This document shows positions 2,746-8,165 of a stretch of DNA of 64,000 nucleotides, in pieces; within the stretch, counting starts at the first letter, position 1; every line of letters starts with the position of its first letter. Origin of the DNA: an uncultured Candidatus Saccharibacteria bacterium (GTDB lineage Bacteria; Patescibacteriota; Minisyncoccia; Phycocordibacterales; PALSA-1337); assembly GCA_964406895.1 (NCBI GenBank), contig CAYOTK010000001.1:90697-154696 (forward strand), read 5' to 3'. A program made the position numbers and the translations under genes. The notes under the pieces were generated by a model. That model saw only the letters and a program-made list of their open reading frames with translations. It had not been told where the DNA came from and did no database searches.

Positions 2746-3125
2746 ACTTCAGAATGAATACAAAAAACAAACCAAATATTCGGCCATAGCGCTTAACCTG
2801 TTTGGTTATCGTTAGAGCCGCCAAGAAGCGGTTTTGTTTTATTCAGAAAGAAAGCAATTTGAAAACCACATACCGAGAAATAAAATGTAGGTAGTTCATG
2901 TACCATATTTGCCTTGGTCGGCCGATATGAGAATGCATGAACACAAGTAAGTAAGCGGTGTACAGATTTCCTAATGGGAAATCAAGGGCGTATGGTGGAT
3001 GCCTTGGCTAGAAAAAGCGATGAAGGACGTGGCGTGGCGACGATACGCTTCGGGGAGGTGCCGAGCAACCTTTGATCCGAAGATGTCCGAATGGGGAAAC
3101 CCGATTATGTAAAACATAATTACTG

Positions 3126-3263
3126 TGTCTCGTTAGTGTTTATTATAAGCGCAAAGCTCAAAGCTCAAAGGGCAAAACTCAAAAGTAAAGGCAAAAGCTA
3201 AAAACTTTTAACCTTAAGCTTTGAATTTGAACCTTTAACCTTTTAATAAATAGTAACGAGACA
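3126..3263 (+). other. IVS-like expansion in the 23S gene at the helix-9 position. A hairpin (stem tgtctcgttag / ctaacgagaca) encloses low-complexity gcaaagctcaaag repeats.
   Basis: About 100 extra nt relative to E. coli between GGGAAACCC and GGGAACUGAAACAUC. Flanked by an 11-bp inverted repeat. Confidence 0.6.
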
Positions 3264-3591
3264 CGGAGCGTACGTTGGGAAGTAAAACATTTCAGTACCA
3301 ACAGGAATAAAAACAAAAATGCATTCCGTTAGTAGCGGCGAGCGAAAGCGGAGGAGACTAAACTTAACGTCGCAAGACGTTGAGGGTTGCAAGGCAGAGA
3401 CGTGCTATTTATAGCAGAGAAGTTACAAAATCTTTTGTTAGCAGAATGAGCTGGAAAGCTCGACCCTAGAGGGTGATAGTCCCGTAAGTTAAAACAAAAG
3501 ATCTTCTTGGTTTCTGTTCTTAAGTACCCCAGGACACGAATAGCTTGGGGGAATCTGCCGGAACTAACCGGCAAGTCTAAATATTTTTCTA

Positions 3592-3631
<40 letters not shown>

Positions 3632-4437
3632 CAGCCCGGAAGGGCGGTGAAATAGATCTGAAACCATATGCCTACAAGGAGTCAGCGCCGTTGCACCTCA
3701 TTGCATTTGCTATAGTGAAATAATCAATAACCAAGATCCAATAATCAAACTCTTATCGAGTTTTGTTTGTTGATTATTGGTGTTTGATTATTTCATGGTA
3801 TCGAATGTAACGAGGTGTAACGGTCATGGCGTGCCTATTGAAGAATGAGCCAACGAGTTTTAGCAAGCAGCTCGGCTAAGTCCGCGAGGACGGAGTCACA
3901 GGGAAACCGAGTCTGAATAGGGCGTTTGTTGTTTGCTAAAGACCCGAAGCCAGATGAGCTTGCCACGCGCAGGGTGAAGTTCGCCGAAAGGCGGATGGAG
4001 GCCCGAACCGGTTAGCCGTGCAAAACTATCGGATGACGTGTGGTAAGGAGTGATAAGCTAATCGAATCTGGTAATAGCTGGTTCTCTCCGAAAAAACTTT
4101 TGGGTTTGCGTCAGAATTACCTTCGTGGGGTAGAGCACTGGAAGGTCTCGACAGGTCGAAAGATCACGAGACCTATCAAACTCCGAATACACGAAGTAAC
4201 TATCTGGCAGTTAGACTGTGGGGGCTAAGCTCCATTGGTCAAAAGGGAAACAGCCCGGATCTCAATTTAAGGTCCCTAAATCGACGTTCAGTGCGCTTAA
4301 GGTAGTGAAAATTCTACGACAATGAGGATGTAGGCTTAGAAGCAGCCATCATTCGAAGATAGCGTAACAGCTCACTCATCGAGAAATTTCGCGCCGCAGA
4401 TAATCGGGGCTAAAATGTCGTACCGAAACTGAGGACT

Positions 4438-4683
4438 TGTAAACTACATTGAGGAAAATTTTGTTCTTTAGGTACCAGAGTAGTTCAATGGCAGAACAGC
4501 TGATTTGGTTGCGCATTGCGACCGTTTTAAGTCAGTATGTTGAAGGTTCGATTCCTTCCTCTGGTGCCAAGTAGATTTCGGTGCTCGGGTAGCACATCTC
4601 GCCAATAAAGCGAGACGGGTTAAAACCCCGCCGGGCATCAATTTCGGGGGGAACTTCGGTTCCCCTCCTCAATGTAGTTTACA
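4438..4683 (+). other. IVS in the 23S gene at the helix-45 position (E. coli ~1170). A perfect 17-bp flanking stem (tgtaaactacattgagg / cctcaatgtagtttaca) encloses a tRNA-like module.
   Basis: 23S homology stops at 4437 and resumes at 4684. The insertion is bounded by a perfect inverted repeat, as in RNase III-processed IVSs. Confidence 0.7.
4474..4569 (+). ncRNA. tRNA-like element inside the helix-45 IVS. Features: 7-bp acceptor stem (ACCAGAG/CTCTGGT), D-arm (GTTC AATGGCA GAAC), canonical T-arm (GAAGG TTCGATT CCTTC), discriminator G and an encoded CCA. The anticodon region is expanded by ~21 nt (loop-like TTTGGTT, i.e. a UGG-like anticodon, then a 21-nt insert).
   Basis: Folded by hand from the sequence. 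The GGTTCGATTCC T-loop and a 3' CCA adjacent to a complementary acceptor strand are both present. Confidence 0.5.
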
Positions 4684-5231
4684 AGTGGTAGGAGAGTATT
4701 TGCATCGCGATGAAGGTGAAGGGGTGACCCACACTGGAGCGTTGCGAAGTAAGAATGTTGGCACAAGTAACCGCAATGCGGGTGAGATACCCGCACGCCG
4801 AAAGATCAAGGTTTCCTTGGCAATGTATATCAGCCAAGGGTTAGTCGGTCCTAAGGGGATGGCGAATGCCGCACCCGATGGATACACGGTTAATATTCCG
4901 TGACTTTCATAAAAATCGATGGAGTGACGAAGTGTAGTATATTGTGCGCATAATTGGATTTGACGTTCATGTCGTAAGGATGAGTCTTGGTAAATCCGGA
5001 CTCTGCTTTTGATAGCATATCCAAGCGAAGTGAAAATTTCGAGCAATCGGGAAATACAATAAAGCACACTTCCAAGAAAAGCTTCTAAGATTATTTTTAT
5101 GAAAACCGTACCGCAAACCGACACAGGTGGTTAGGTCGAGTAGACCTAGGCGAACGAGTGAGAGGTCTCCAAGGAACTCGGCAAAAAAGCAGCCGTAACT
5201 TCGGAATAAGGCTTGCCCTCTGGATATTGGT

Positions 5232-5295
5232 CGTTAGTTTTTGGTTTTTGGTAATCGCATTTGTGATTACTAATAACTAATTACTAATTACTAAT
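5232..5295 (+). repeat. AT-rich hairpin mini-repeat (ttagtaatta family), copy A, in the 23S helix-63 variable region.
   Basis: The sequence cgttagtttttggtttttggtaatcgcatttgtgattactaataactaattactaattactaata is about 57/65 identical to the reverse complement of 6931-7015. Confidence 0.6.
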
Positions 5296-5489
5296 ACCCA
5301 GAGGGCCGCAGCTAAAGTATCTCTGGCAACTGTTTAACAAAAACACAGCTCCCTGCGAACTCGTAAGAGGAAGTATAGGGGGTGACACTTGACCAATGCG
5401 AGAAGGTCAAATAACGGCGGTGCGATTATATCAAGCTGACTGTTATAAGCCCTCGTGAATGTCGGTCGTAACTATAACGATCCTAAGGT

Positions 5490-6263
5490 TCTTGGTTTAT
5501 TCACAAGAATGAATCAAGAAGGACTGGGATCGTTATGAGATTAATTGTTAAATATAGAAAACGTATAAGGAATTAATAATGCTGCCTATCTGCGCAGAAT
5601 AAAATGCAGATGTCCTAATAAATATCTGACTATATGCTGGGAAGTCTGAGTATCTCAGGTCACTATGGTATAATTACACCATAGTAACAATACCATGAGT
5701 GCAGACAATCAGCAGGAAAGATTAAAAATTGAAAATTGGATTCTTGGTTTCACTGATGGTGAAGGATGCTTTTCGGTTAGTTTTATAAGAAATAAAACGA
5801 CGAAAACCGGATGGCAAATTTTTCCAGAGTTTGTGATTACGAAAGGAGCCAAAAGTCTGTCTGCTCTCAAAATTATCAAAAAATATTTTGGGTGTGGAAA
5901 ATTATTCGTAAACAGACGTCATGATAATCATAGGGAAAATCTATATCGTTATTGTGTTAGATCTGTTACTGAATTGGAGAAAGTTATCGTCCCATTCTTT
6001 CTAAGAAATGAACTGAAGACATTTAAAATGAATGATTTTCGATTGTTTTCGAAAATCATACTGATTATGTCTGCTGGCGATCATTTGAATATAGTGGGAA
6101 TGAATAAAATCGCCAAATTAGTAGAAAAAATGAACAGACGAAAAAAATCTCGATTTTTGAAATCCTCAGAAACCAAACGTCAGACCCTGAGCGAAGCGCG
6201 TAGCGCTGAGTCGAAGGGAAAATAGAGTTCGCGCTGCATAGCGATATGCAGATTAACAAAACG
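5490..6263 (+). mobile_element. Intron-like insertion (presumed group I) in the 23S gene at the helix-69 hotspot (E. coli ~1917), carrying a LAGLIDADG endonuclease ORF.
   Basis: 774 nt interrupt CCUAAGGU|AGCGAAAUUCC. Preceded by U and ends in G. Junction placement is ambiguous by 1 nt. The group I core was not confidently identified by eye. Confidence 0.65.
5695..6225 (+). CDS. LAGLIDADG homing endonuclease, single-motif (homodimer type), intron-encoded.
   Basis: 176 aa with motif ILGFTDGEGCFSV near the N-terminus. Lies entirely inside the 23S insertion. Confidence 0.8.
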   Translation: MSADNQQERLKIENWILGFTDGEGCFSVSFIRNKTTKTGWQIFPEFVITKGAKSLSALKIIKKYFGCGKLFVNRRHDNHRENLYRYCVRSVTELEKVIVPFFLRNELKTFKMNDFRLFSKIILIMSAGDHLNIVGMNKIAKLVEKMNRRKKSRFLKSSETKRQTLSEARSAESKGK

Positions 6264-6894
6264 TAGCGCAATTCCTTGCGGGGTAAGTTCCCGCGCGTTG
6301 AAAAGTGTAATGACTGGAGAACTGTCTCGGAGACTTGCTCGGTGAAAATACAATACCGGTGAAGATGCCGGTTACCTGCAGTTAGACGAAAAGACCCTAG
6401 AAGCTTTACTGTAATTTGGTATTGACTATACGTTTTTGATGCGTAGCGTAGACGGTAGGATTTGAAGTGTCCCTTTCGGGGGGCATGGATCCGACGATGA
6501 AACACCGTTCTTTAAGAATGTATATTCTAACCTCGGCGGTATAAACGCCGGGAGACAGTATCTGATGGACAGTTTTAGTGGGGCGCTATCCTCCTAAACA
6601 GTAACGGAGGAGCCTATTAAGTTCAGCTAGGCGCGAATGGAAACCGTGCCGATAGTGTATGGGCACAAGCTGGATTGACTGCGAGACGTACGTGTCGAGC
6701 AGATGCGAAAGCAGAGCCAAGTGATCCGACCTTACGCATTAGATGCGGGGGAAGCTCATCGGACAAAAGCTACTCTAGGGATAACAGGCTAGTTCCGCCT
6801 AAGCGTTCATAGCGACGGCGGAGTTCGGCACCTCGATGTCGGCTCACCACATCCCGGGGGTGGAGAAGCTCCCAAGGGTTTGGCTGTTCGCCAA

Positions 6895-6929
<35 letters not shown>

Positions 6930-6930
6930 A

Positions 6931-7015
6931 TTTAGTTATTAGTGATTAGTAGTTAGTTATTGGTGATCGCAAATATGATTACCTAAAACCAAGAACTAAT
7001 AACCAATAACCAAGT
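6931..7015 (+). repeat. AT-rich hairpin mini-repeat, copy B, inverted relative to copy A, at the 5' edge of the second intron. A partial third copy lies at 7099-7145.
   Basis: Reverse complement about 57/65 identical to 5232-5295. The ttagtaattagt motif recurs at 7099-7145. Confidence 0.55.
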
Positions 7016-7137
7016 AGGGCAGTCTGAATCACTTCGAGAGATAATTTTAGTAGTCTATGAAAAAGTATAGGAAATGAACAATCATATCATGGCGGTCGTT
7101 TTAGTAATTAGTCATTAGTAATTAGTGATTAGTTCTA

Positions 7138-7560
7138 ATGCGAACAAGTCGATTTATATCGGTGGAAATCCCGAAAAGGAAGATACCGAGGGAATTATGT
7201 TCACTTAAATGGAAAAGAAGGAAGCGTATGATAATAAAATGGAAGTTGCTAATAAGCGTGTGTGTAGATGATGATTTTGAAAATTGCTTCAAGGATCTGG
7301 AAGCAGATGATGCAGATCAGGCTTTGGAATTAGCGTTCAAAGAAGTTCAGAAAGTTAACAATAGTCTTAGTGATAACGCAGACATCAACAGTGCTCTTTT
7401 ACTCGGGTTTCCTCAAGATGGAGCTTGGAGAAAGAGGCATGGTGACTTCGTTTTCATTGGACGCTGCAGAGCTCTTCAATCCAAAGAAGCAATCAAACAT
7501 TCATCGGTCAGTGAGTTCTGGAGGCCATACGGTACAGCGGACGGCACCATCGAAGACTGA
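7138..7560 (+). CDS. Intron-internal ORF of unknown type (140 aa). No LAGLIDADG, GIY-YIG, HNH or His-Cys motif seen. Possibly degenerate or novel.
   Basis: Longest ORF inside the second 23S insertion. Acidic/low-complexity middle (DDDFENCFKDLEADDADQALE). Confidence 0.3.
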   Translation: MRTSRFISVEIPKRKIPRELCSLKWKRRKRMIIKWKLLISVCVDDDFENCFKDLEADDADQALELAFKEVQKVNNSLSDNADINSALLLGFPQDGAWRKRHGDFVFIGRCRALQSKEAIKHSSVSEFWRPYGTADGTIED

Positions 7561-8052
7561 CCTCAAGGGAATGGTCTCCATTCCCTCCATTTAAGTGAAC
7601 ATAAGCCCGTAGAGACTAAACATCGACCCCCACTTCGCTCCTTTGGAGCTACGCGGGGAAGCTATAGTCCATTGCATCCTGTAAAGGATGATAACAAGCG
7701 TGAGACAGGTTGGTCTCCTATCTACTGCAGGCGTTGATACTTGAGGGGATTTGATAATAGTACGAGAGGACCTTATTGAACAGACCTCTGGTCTACCTGC
7801 TGTCGTGCCAACGGCACCGCAGGGCAGCTATGTCTGGACCGGATAACCGCTGAAAGCATATAAGCGGGAAGCCGACCCCAAGATTATGTATCGTTGAGAC
7901 CCCTGAGAGATGATCAGGTTGATAGGCGTTAGGTGTACGCACCGTAAGGTGTTGAGCCGTGACGTACTAATCCGTCGATCCTGTTAGGAACTTTGTACAG
8001 CATTATTTACGCACTTTATTTCTCGGTTATGGTTTTGAAAGTTGAATATTTT

Positions 8053-8165
8053 GTTCTGGTGGTTCGGCGCTATGGCAACACCCGTTCTCATTCCGAACAC
8101 GGCAGTGAAACGTAGTTGCGGCGATGATAGTCCTTCGGGGCGAAAGTAGCTTGCCGCCAGAACAA
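8053..8165 (+). rRNA. rrf: 5S rRNA.
   Basis: ttctggtggttcggcgctatggc...ccgaacacggcagtgaaacg...gccgccagaac matches the bacterial 5S consensus. Flanked by a processing stem (gttgaatattttgttctgg / ccagaacaaaatattcaac). Confidence 0.9.

Follow-up and report, generated by a model that had tools for sequence, protein, structure and literature searches.

Location of the insertion

The stretch of DNA analyzed here (the window; 64,000 nucleotides (nt) of contig CAYOTK010000001.1 from an uncultured Candidatus Saccharibacteria bacterium) contains a 23S ribosomal RNA (rRNA) gene, matched by the Rfam family LSU_rRNA_bacteria at 2972..7054 on the + strand with 1914 bits. Global alignment to E. coli MG1655 rrlH, from which the E. 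coli numbering is taken, reveals one large insertion adjoining the conserved CCUAAGGUAGCG. This insertion is almost certainly a group I intron that carries a gene for a LAGLIDADG homing endonuclease, a class already catalogued at 23S position 1931 in bacteria of the candidate phyla radiation (CPR), with one enzyme characterized (Tsurumaki 2024, PMC11270868). As first described, the element is therefore ordinary. What is of note is the coupled loss of two near-universal group I features, the terminal guanosine and its G-C pair, both of which are replaced in the window intron and over 60 of its relatives, copies devoid of the endonuclease gene included.

The 23S gene is split between CCUAAGGU, whose last base is 5489, and AGCGCAAUUCC, whose first base is 6265. 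Because CCTAAGGTAGCG begins at position 1924 in E. coli, the window CCUAAGGU ends at U1931 and AGCGCAAUUCC resumes at A1932. The insertion therefore follows U1931 (site L1931), 7 nt 3' of helix 69, and lies outside the helix-69 loop, whereas a preliminary description made from the letters of the window had placed it near position 1917 in the helix-69 hotspot. The junctions read ...AAGGU/UCUUGG...AAAACGU/AGCGC, and exact restoration of the rRNA (GGUAGCG) takes a deletion of 775 nt, which may cover 5490..6264 or start one or two bases further to the left. The insertion reported in the preliminary description is thus real, but its length of 774 nt (5490..6263) is one short, since excision of that segment leaves an extra U. 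The predicted intron-less target site reads ACGATCCTAAGGTAGCGCAATTCC. The boundaries and the coding region are as follows.

5490..6264, + strand: whole intron at L1931, 775 nt (exon junction restoration; homology to 120 L1931 introns)
5477..5489, + strand: 5' exon segment, E. coli 1919-1931, in which U5489 is U1931, the base before the 5' splice site (E. coli alignment; minimum free energy (MFE) fold)
6264..6264, + strand: last intron nucleotide (omega position), U (comparison of relatives)
6265..6275, + strand: 3' exon, from A1932 (E. coli alignment)
5695..6225, + strand: open reading frame (ORF) for a single-motif LAGLIDADG homing endonuclease of 176 amino acids (Pfam LAGLIDADG_1; homologues)

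Endonuclease gene

The preliminary description had recognized a 176-residue, single-motif LAGLIDADG ORF (GFTDGEGCF) and had proposed a profile search against the LAGLIDADG families. That search matches the ORF to Pfam LAGLIDADG_1 (PF00961) with 74.3 bits (E 1.7e-20) over profile positions 1-101 of 102, nearly the whole profile, the curated cut-off being 23.1 bits, and the identification is confirmed. The motif reads LGFTDGEGCF; residues G18-F26 (GFTDGEGCF), including the acidic residue, are invariant across 20 aligned homologues, in which a C-terminal stretch (S-R/Q-F-L-K/E-S-S/P-E-T) is nearly invariant as well. In the PDB the ORF matches each half of solved two-domain LAGLIDADG meganucleases, with E values down to 2e-37. 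A large protein collection yielded 3565 homologues, the best of which are 65-99% identical and come mostly from Patescibacteria/Parcubacteria metagenome-assembled genomes (MAGs).

The single-motif architecture, together with the precedent of I-ShaI (PMC11270868), suggests that the product would act as a homodimer cutting intron-less 23S rDNA around CCUAAGGU/AGCG, and such cleavage would drive homing of the intron. The protein may also assist folding of the RNA.

Ribozyme structure

The predicted secondary structure, given in the usual group I nomenclature of paired (P), joining (J) and loop (L) regions, comprises the following elements.

5477-5485 with 5525-5533, + strand: P1, 5' exon paired with the internal guide (MFE fold, covariation)
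5489..5520 (5489-5502 with 5507-5520), + strand: intron-side extension of P1 (MFE fold; compensatory changes)
5521..5533, + strand: internal guide sequence GGACUGGGAUCGU (comparison of relatives)
5534..5624, + strand: peripheral P2/P2.1 domain, with conserved GCUGCC at 5581-5586 and a hairpin at 5588-5611 (MFE fold, relatives)
5625..5630, + strand: P3 5' strand UCUGAC, pairing with 6179-6184 (RNAalifold, pair counts, Rfam alignment of the ORF-less homologue L189)
5636..5640, + strand: P4 5' strand GCUGG, pairing with 5709-5713 (UCAGC) (invariant pairs; Rfam P4 in L189)
5644..5706, + strand: P5 (5644-5648 with 5702-5706) enclosing a P5a/P5b extension, with a hairpin at 5663-5684 and an A-rich stretch at 5685-5691 (MFE fold; UA<->CG covariation)
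5714..5732 (5' strands), + strand: P6 (5714-5717 with 6163-6166) and P6a (5722-5732 with 6150-6160), which close the loop containing most of the ORF (joined fold)
6167..6175, + strand: P7 5' strand CAGAAACCA, pairing with 6225-6231, A6170 being the bulged A (aligned by Rfam to the consensus UCAaAGACUAAAcG)
6179..6184, + strand: P3 3' strand GUCAGA (RNAalifold, pair counts)
6185..6218, + strand: P8 hairpin (MFE fold, covariation)
6219..6231, + strand: J8/7 (AAAAUA) and P7 3' strand GAGUUCG (Rfam alignment to the consensus AAGAUAUAGUC)
6234..6251, + strand: P9 hairpin with a GCGA (GNRA) tetraloop (Rfam, covariation, MFE fold)

The core is recognizable in two segments. UCAGAAACCAAACGUCAGA (6166..6184) resembles the group I consensus UCAaAGACUAAAcGgCaGac for the P7 5' strand, J7/3 and the P3 3' strand, and AAAAUAGAGUUCG (6219..6231) resembles the J8/7 and P7 3' strand consensus, to which Rfam aligns the window letters AAAAUAGAGUUC at 6219-6230. 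The same P7, P3 and J8/7 alignments are made by Rfam in relatives and, in part, in the window. The preliminary description had found no P7/P3 core upstream of the ORF; these elements were missed because P7 and the P3 3' strand are located further downstream, within the 3' part of the ORF.

The ORF runs through P5a', P5', P4', P6, L6, P6', P7, P3' and P8, from a start codon (5695-5697) in the P5a 3' strand to a UAG stop codon (6223-6225) in J8/7. The P4 3' strand, for example, sits within the codons for ADNQQ. This overlap with the ribozyme core accounts for the invariance, in protein and nucleotides alike, of N-terminal ADNQQER and C-terminal SSETKRQ.

Support for the fold comes from an alignment of 11 ORF-less homologues (alignment A2), in which RNAalifold recovers P1, P3, P4, P5, P6, P6a, P8 and P9. 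With the P7 pseudoknot added, 94.2% of the cells hold standard pairs versus 78.7% in shuffled alignments, and 36 pairs are changed on both sides; none of 500 shuffles attained these figures. When the partners are displaced by 1-3 columns, pairing falls to 33-42%. The helices so recovered can be located in the window. Compensatory changes in these homologues back P1, P3, P5, P6a, P8 and P9, while the pairs of P4 and P6 never vary and are hence uninformative. The exon/guide pairs of P1 covary among relatives (CG/UA/GC and GC/AU), as do 11 of the 13 pairs of the P1 extension; P3 shows GC<->AU, UA<->CG and CG<->UA exchanges, and all five pairs of P6a in ORF-less relatives and all six pairs of P8 covary. 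At the 5' splice site, U5489 pairs with A5520 in the MFE fold, and a U.G wobble with G5521 would need a bulged A; the UU...AAGG arrangement seen here is common to relatives ending in G.

Covariance models gave a mixed result. At the Rfam gathering thresholds only LSU rRNA was matched in the window, with no intron family. In a permissive Rfam scan of 5440..6320 the window copy scored 14 bits (E 0.82) against Intron_gpI (RF00028), below the threshold of 50 bits, and the canonical ORF-bearing relative L013 also fell short with 23.3 bits. The ORF-less homologue L189 (6326-6663 of its locus, - strand) scored 56.3 bits, above the threshold. The low score of the window copy arises because the 531-nt ORF splits the core, and the proposal in the preliminary description that absence of a covariance-model hit would refute an intron was therefore too strict. 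Group II models found no match in the same scan even at E<=10, and the other matches were chance. The group I class, given as presumptive in the preliminary description, is thus borne out by the covarying fold and by L189.

The lack of an above-threshold Rfam match in the window copy would fit an insertion other than a group I intron, such as an RNase III-type intervening sequence, an expansion segment, a group II intron or an element with a free-standing endonuclease gene. Such alternatives can be given very little credence in view of the covariation-backed group I fold, the ORF-less homologue above threshold and the silence of the group II models. In addition, RNase III intervening sequences have a terminal stem and lie in helix 25 or 45, whereas the ends of this insertion, at site 1931, do not pair with each other and its 5' end pairs with the upstream exon.

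Terminal base and the pocket pair of P7

The preliminary description had the insertion preceded by U and ending in G, as a canonical intron of 5490..6263 would be; the spliced product would then contain an extra U (GGUUAGCG at the junction) or represent a variant rRNA. The letters themselves are correct, with U at 5489 and G at 6263. However, the ten genome relatives closest in RNA type have A, C or U in place of G6263, followed by an invariant U. Moreover, sister introns from genomes of the Moranbacteria type, with the same spacing from UAACA to the 3' splice site, end in a G that aligns with U6264. The G at 6263 is thus fortuitous, and U6264 is the last base of the intron. The extra U would also interrupt a sequence otherwise identical to E. 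coli 1924-1933, and the pocket pair described below is A-U, not G-C. A boundary at G6263, rejected for its lack of conservation, is thus very improbable; the logic behind it was wrong, and the intron belongs to a widespread natural variant without the terminal G and the G-C pocket pair. Placement one base to the left, with the 5' exon ending at G1930, was rejected as well: the terminal base would vary among G, A, C and U, and the placement clashes with unambiguous C-ending relatives and with helix-anchored tails.

Group I ribozymes have one nucleoside site, occupied by free guanosine in the first step and by the terminal G in the second, each forming a base triple with a G-C pair of P7 (PMC2588497). 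The pair of the window intron that aligns with Tetrahymena G264-C311 is A6171-U6229, the fifth pair counted from J8/7 and the one immediately 3' of the bulged A; the homology was assigned by position, and the Rfam consensus alignment agrees. Neither the terminal guanosine (omega G) nor a G-C pair at the guanosine-binding position of P7 is present, the two being replaced by U6264 and A6171-U6229. Coding does not account for the change in the pocket, since A6171 stands in the third position of a Glu codon (GAA vs GAG).

Two collections of relatives were compared. A scan with one genome per species gave 270 loci encoding a relative of the ORF, 80 of which were kept; in 70 of these 80, an ORF-bearing insertion lies between CCTAAGG and AGCG, i.e. 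at L1931. A metagenome scan required only that the 5' base of the pocket pair be other than G, which left the partner and the terminal nucleotide free. Among the metagenome pattern matches, 49 of 120 failed to parse as complete L1931 introns; they were mostly unrelated coding sequences, with at least one intron cut by a contig end. Genome set and metagenome scan together supplied 120 related L1931 introns that could be parsed completely. The combinations in the unselected genome set were:

G-C pair with terminal G: 45
G-C pair with terminal A: 13
A-U pair with terminal U: 11
U-A pair with terminal C: 2

Over the 120 parsed introns, designated by 5' pocket base and terminal base, the counts are A/U 60, G/G 42, G/A 13, U/C 4 and U/U 1. 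The A-U pair is accompanied by terminal U in 60 of 60 cases, U-A by C or U in 5 of 5, and G-C by G or A in 55 of 55; the pocket pair is Watson-Crick in every case. All metagenome L1931 introns with a readable 3' junction end in a pyrimidine (67 with A-U end in U, and 4 with U-A end in C or U). When all columns of the core alignment were scanned against the purine or pyrimidine nature of the terminal base, the two columns of the pocket pair came out on top with 0.99 bit each, and the next-best column reached 0.61 bit.

In one architectural subtype a conserved UUCG/CGAA helix immediately precedes the terminal base, whose position is thereby set without reference to the exon. Here the terminal base is G in L080 and A in L064 (both G-C), U in L176 (A-U) and C in L123 (U-A), the relatives being designated by locus number. 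In C-ending introns the splice sites (5' GGU/U..., 3' ...C/AGCG) cannot slide. In a neighbor-joining ordering the U-ending introns with an A-U pair fall into three separate blocks, suggesting at least three switches.

The 13 introns that end in A with a G-C pair are L009, L013, L017, L041-43, L050, L053, L059, L064, L072, L078 and L079. An attempt to read A-ending relatives as slid placements was rejected; no more than four can be so read, and the splice site would then no longer fall at the U.G pair of P1.

Implications for splicing

The insertion is read here as a mobile group I intron. Its P1 is long, with nine 5' exon nucleotides bound to the internal guide, and its fold further comprises a P2 domain, a P5abc-like extension, the pseudoknot of P3 and P7, P8, and P9 capped by a GNRA loop. 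Across this core lies the endonuclease gene, starting in P5a, with its bulk in the P6 loop and its 3' end over P6', P7, P3' and P8. Presumably, the intron leaves the pre-23S rRNA by two group I transesterifications. The covariation suggests a change in specificity of the nucleoside pocket toward the terminal U, such that a U.A-U triple would replace G.G-C; the odds of such a re-specification are about even. The U.A-U triple is a known companion of G.G-C in purine-motif triplexes, and the substitution is therefore chemically plausible. Since one pocket serves both steps, the nucleophile of the first step may also differ from guanosine, although a cofactor other than guanosine is on balance doubtful. 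Overall, a mobile L1931 group I intron with a re-specified pocket appears to be the best explanation, with a probability of roughly 0.6.

The principal alternative is a ribozyme crippled for canonical splicing. The intron would then be retained in mature 23S rRNA, or removed without exon ligation, by 5' cleavage and 3' hydrolysis or by host RNases, leaving a fragmented functional 23S rRNA as an intervening sequence does. A non-G terminal base and a non-G-C pocket are the changes that disable guanosine-dependent splicing in model introns (pocket chemistry in PMC2588497). The L1931 intron of Simkania is reported to remain unspliced, according to a title cited in PMC11270868 and PMC1995217. This 23S gene already contains an intervening sequence in helix 45, and fragmentation is probably tolerated; 13 relatives, moreover, end in A without any change of the pocket. 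Nevertheless, such a loss of function is unlikely. A functionless terminal base should drift, yet it tracks the pocket pair without exception in 120 introns, as it does no other column, and the pocket pair is Watson-Crick throughout. The core is still under selection after the switch, with an A-U pair and terminal U in 55 of 80 non-redundant (<90% identity) P2-type constructs, and ORF-less copies show many compensatory changes. The numerous diverged introns, the covarying fold and the Watson-Crick pair argue for a working RNA with a docking terminal base rather than decay.

Several points weigh against a re-specified pocket. Conversion of Tetrahymena G264-C311 to A-U, or alteration of the terminal G, reportedly impairs guanosine-dependent splicing strongly (Michel, 1989; Been and Perrotta, 1991). 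The assignment of A6171-U6229 to G264-C311 depends on positional homology to the Tetrahymena sequence and on the Rfam consensus alignment. The window copy itself scores below the Rfam threshold (14 bits), and its splicing is a prediction. In U-ending introns a slide of one base is formally possible, U1931 being the same letter as the terminal U; such a slide would make the terminal base variable and would break the homology with the other introns. The coupling is not rigid: the 13 relatives that end in A retain the G-C pair and belong to several unrelated sub-types, and U-A pairs occur with either C or U. A non-G terminal base thus appears to be repeatedly tolerated in this L1931 family. Lastly, the number of independent switches is uncertain, given a neighbor-joining tree built on short sequences.

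The broadest form of the proposal, that a large and diverse set of natural introns in Patescibacteria 23S rRNA has a re-specified pocket (G-C turned into A-U or U-A, terminal G into U or C, with the pyrimidine docking as a U.A-U-type triple) and starts splicing with a nucleoside other than guanosine (e.g. uridine or uridine triphosphate, UTP), and that these would be the first such natural ribozymes, is put forward tentatively, with the odds against it. Genuine re-specification of the pocket would make a sharp prediction, namely that splicing of the transcript would differ between uridine or UTP and guanosine triphosphate, and such introns could possibly provide orthogonal self-splicing modules for RNA circularization and trans-splicing tools. 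They also defeat standard annotation: Rfam Intron_gpI misses them, and a rule of the form 'U ... G' shifts the boundary by one base.

Comparison with known introns

The catalogue of CPR rRNA insertions lists LAGLIDADG_1 ORFs at 23S positions 1917, 1931, 1952, 2593, 2604 and 2657 (Tsurumaki 2024, PMC11270868). The likeness to CPR homing-endonuclease rRNA introns noted in the preliminary description holds, as the nearest relatives are Parcubacteria MAGs and position 1931 is among the catalogued LAGLIDADG_1 sites. The window intron shares with the catalogued 1931 insertions the host group, the class of site, group-I-like flanks and a single-domain LAGLIDADG_1 ORF of ~170 amino acids. The CPR 23S insertion 23IS7 is home to I-ShaI and I-KazI, of which I-ShaI was shown to dimerize and to cleave the site of its own insertion (PMC11270868). 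On our reading 23IS7 is the 1931 site, since the order of sites in that paper (1917, 1931, 1952) would correspond to 23IS6-8; the likeness to I-ShaI is one of description only. That study classified the insertions through Rfam and Pfam and does not discuss the splice-site nucleotides or the guanosine pocket (the word 'guanosine' occurs 0 times).

Bacterial L1931 introns have been described in Simkania, Thermotoga and Synechococcus, and their ORFs extend from a peripheral loop into the P7/P3/P8 core (Haugen et al. 2007, PMC1995217). The window intron resembles them in site, endonuclease family, an IC1-like complex P5 and the course of the ORF from a peripheral loop into the core. In contrast to these introns, described without P2, it possesses a P2 domain of 90 nt and an extended P1.

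A natural intron with a re-specified pocket would, if real, be the counterpart of the classic Tetrahymena specificity-switch mutants. Changing G264-C311 to A-U reportedly shifted the specificity to 2-aminopurine (Michel, 1989), and adenosine is said to have supported splicing when the pocket and the terminal G were changed together (Been and Perrotta, 1991, cited in PMC2588497). In those mutants the same pair becomes A-U and the terminal base must change in step, a logic that the natural variants appear to follow. However, the mutants are laboratory constructs that accept purine analogues, whereas the variants of the window type are natural, widespread and paired with pyrimidines.

A 23S group I intron of Coxiella burnetii 'lacks the canonical omegaG', according to the title of the report (Raghavan 2007, cited in PMC11270868). 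As far as that title indicates, this bacterial 23S intron of the 1917-1951 hotspot is likewise natural, splices itself and ends in a base other than G; however, it is a single case, whereas the window family has U (or C) together with a compensating change of the pocket pair. The replacement in Coxiella is reportedly A with the pocket unchanged, like the 13 A-ending relatives. A literature search for natural non-G terminal bases or non-G-C pockets found only this title, and it found neither a pyrimidine terminal nucleotide nor a compensating pocket change; its coverage was incomplete, and a prior description is possible.

Distribution of related introns

The metagenome scan also yielded versions of the L1931 intron of 304-430 nt that are devoid of the ORF and have a short P6a hairpin in its place. 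Those with an A-U pair and terminal U are L094, L106, L124, L126, L132, L133, L145, L175, L185 and L189. Such short introns are convenient as minimal ribozymes in experimental work. Locus L118 (reverse strand, ~4671..5089 and upstream) has two introns in tandem within a single 23S gene. The first, at L1917, contains a LAGLIDADG ORF; the second, beyond a 14-nt exon (AACGGUCCUAAGGU), is an ORF-less L1931 intron with a U-A pocket pair and terminal U.

Close relatives of the endonuclease and intron occur in Acidobacteria/Pyrinomonadaceae (L045, L063, L074), including a complete 6.27-Mb Pyrinomonadaceae chromosome, and further relatives lie on contigs labelled Bathyarchaeia, Nanoarchaeota, Gammaproteobacteria and Bdellovibrionales. 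Their presence in bins with non-CPR labels may reflect either horizontal spread or mis-binned rRNA contigs.

Other insertions in the 23S rRNA gene

A second group I intron of 772 nt (6927..7698, + strand) interrupts the same 23S gene at E. coli U2593 (L2593), the I-CreI site. It is canonical, with U before the 5' splice site, terminal G7698, P7 strands AGAGACUA / UAGUCC and a P9 hairpin. Its G-C pair accompanies its terminal G, and it provides an internal control for the L1931 pattern. Rfam does not match the L2593 intron, nor does Pfam match its ORF of 140 amino acids (7138..7560). Some 40 of the retrieved loci share an intron at the L2593 site.

The Rfam LSU rRNA match stops at 7054, yet E. 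coli 2594-2760 aligns to 7699..7865, which extends the 23S gene to ~8009, a short distance upstream of the 5S rRNA (8055..8162). The match ends ~950 nt short, and automatic annotation would shorten the gene by that amount.

The intervening sequence in helix 45 (4437..4685, + strand) replaces the tip of the helix and is closed by a terminal stem formed by a 20-bp inverted repeat. Nested within it is a transfer RNA (tRNA) gene at 4474..4566, followed by CCA at 4567..4569 (Rfam 58.5 bits). ARAGORN detects this gene solely when introns are allowed; it is then read as a tRNA-Lys(UUU) whose anticodon loop is interrupted between positions 32 and 33 by a hairpin of 19 nt. Related arrangements include a tRNA-Lys(UUU) without insert (L005) and a tRNA-Glu(UUC) with a 49-nt insert (L006), each inside a helix-45 insertion of the 23S gene, and a tRNA-Glu(CUC) in or near the same 23S region (L012). 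The helix-45 tRNA is unmentioned in Tsurumaki 2024 (PMC11270868).

Relative to E. coli, the gene has four other insertions on the + strand, at 3105..3262, 3380..3435, 3685..3802 and 5283..5325, which follow E. coli positions 132-172, 289, 536 and 1769, respectively. The insertion after 536 has 118 nt and occupies the classical helix-25 intervening-sequence site.

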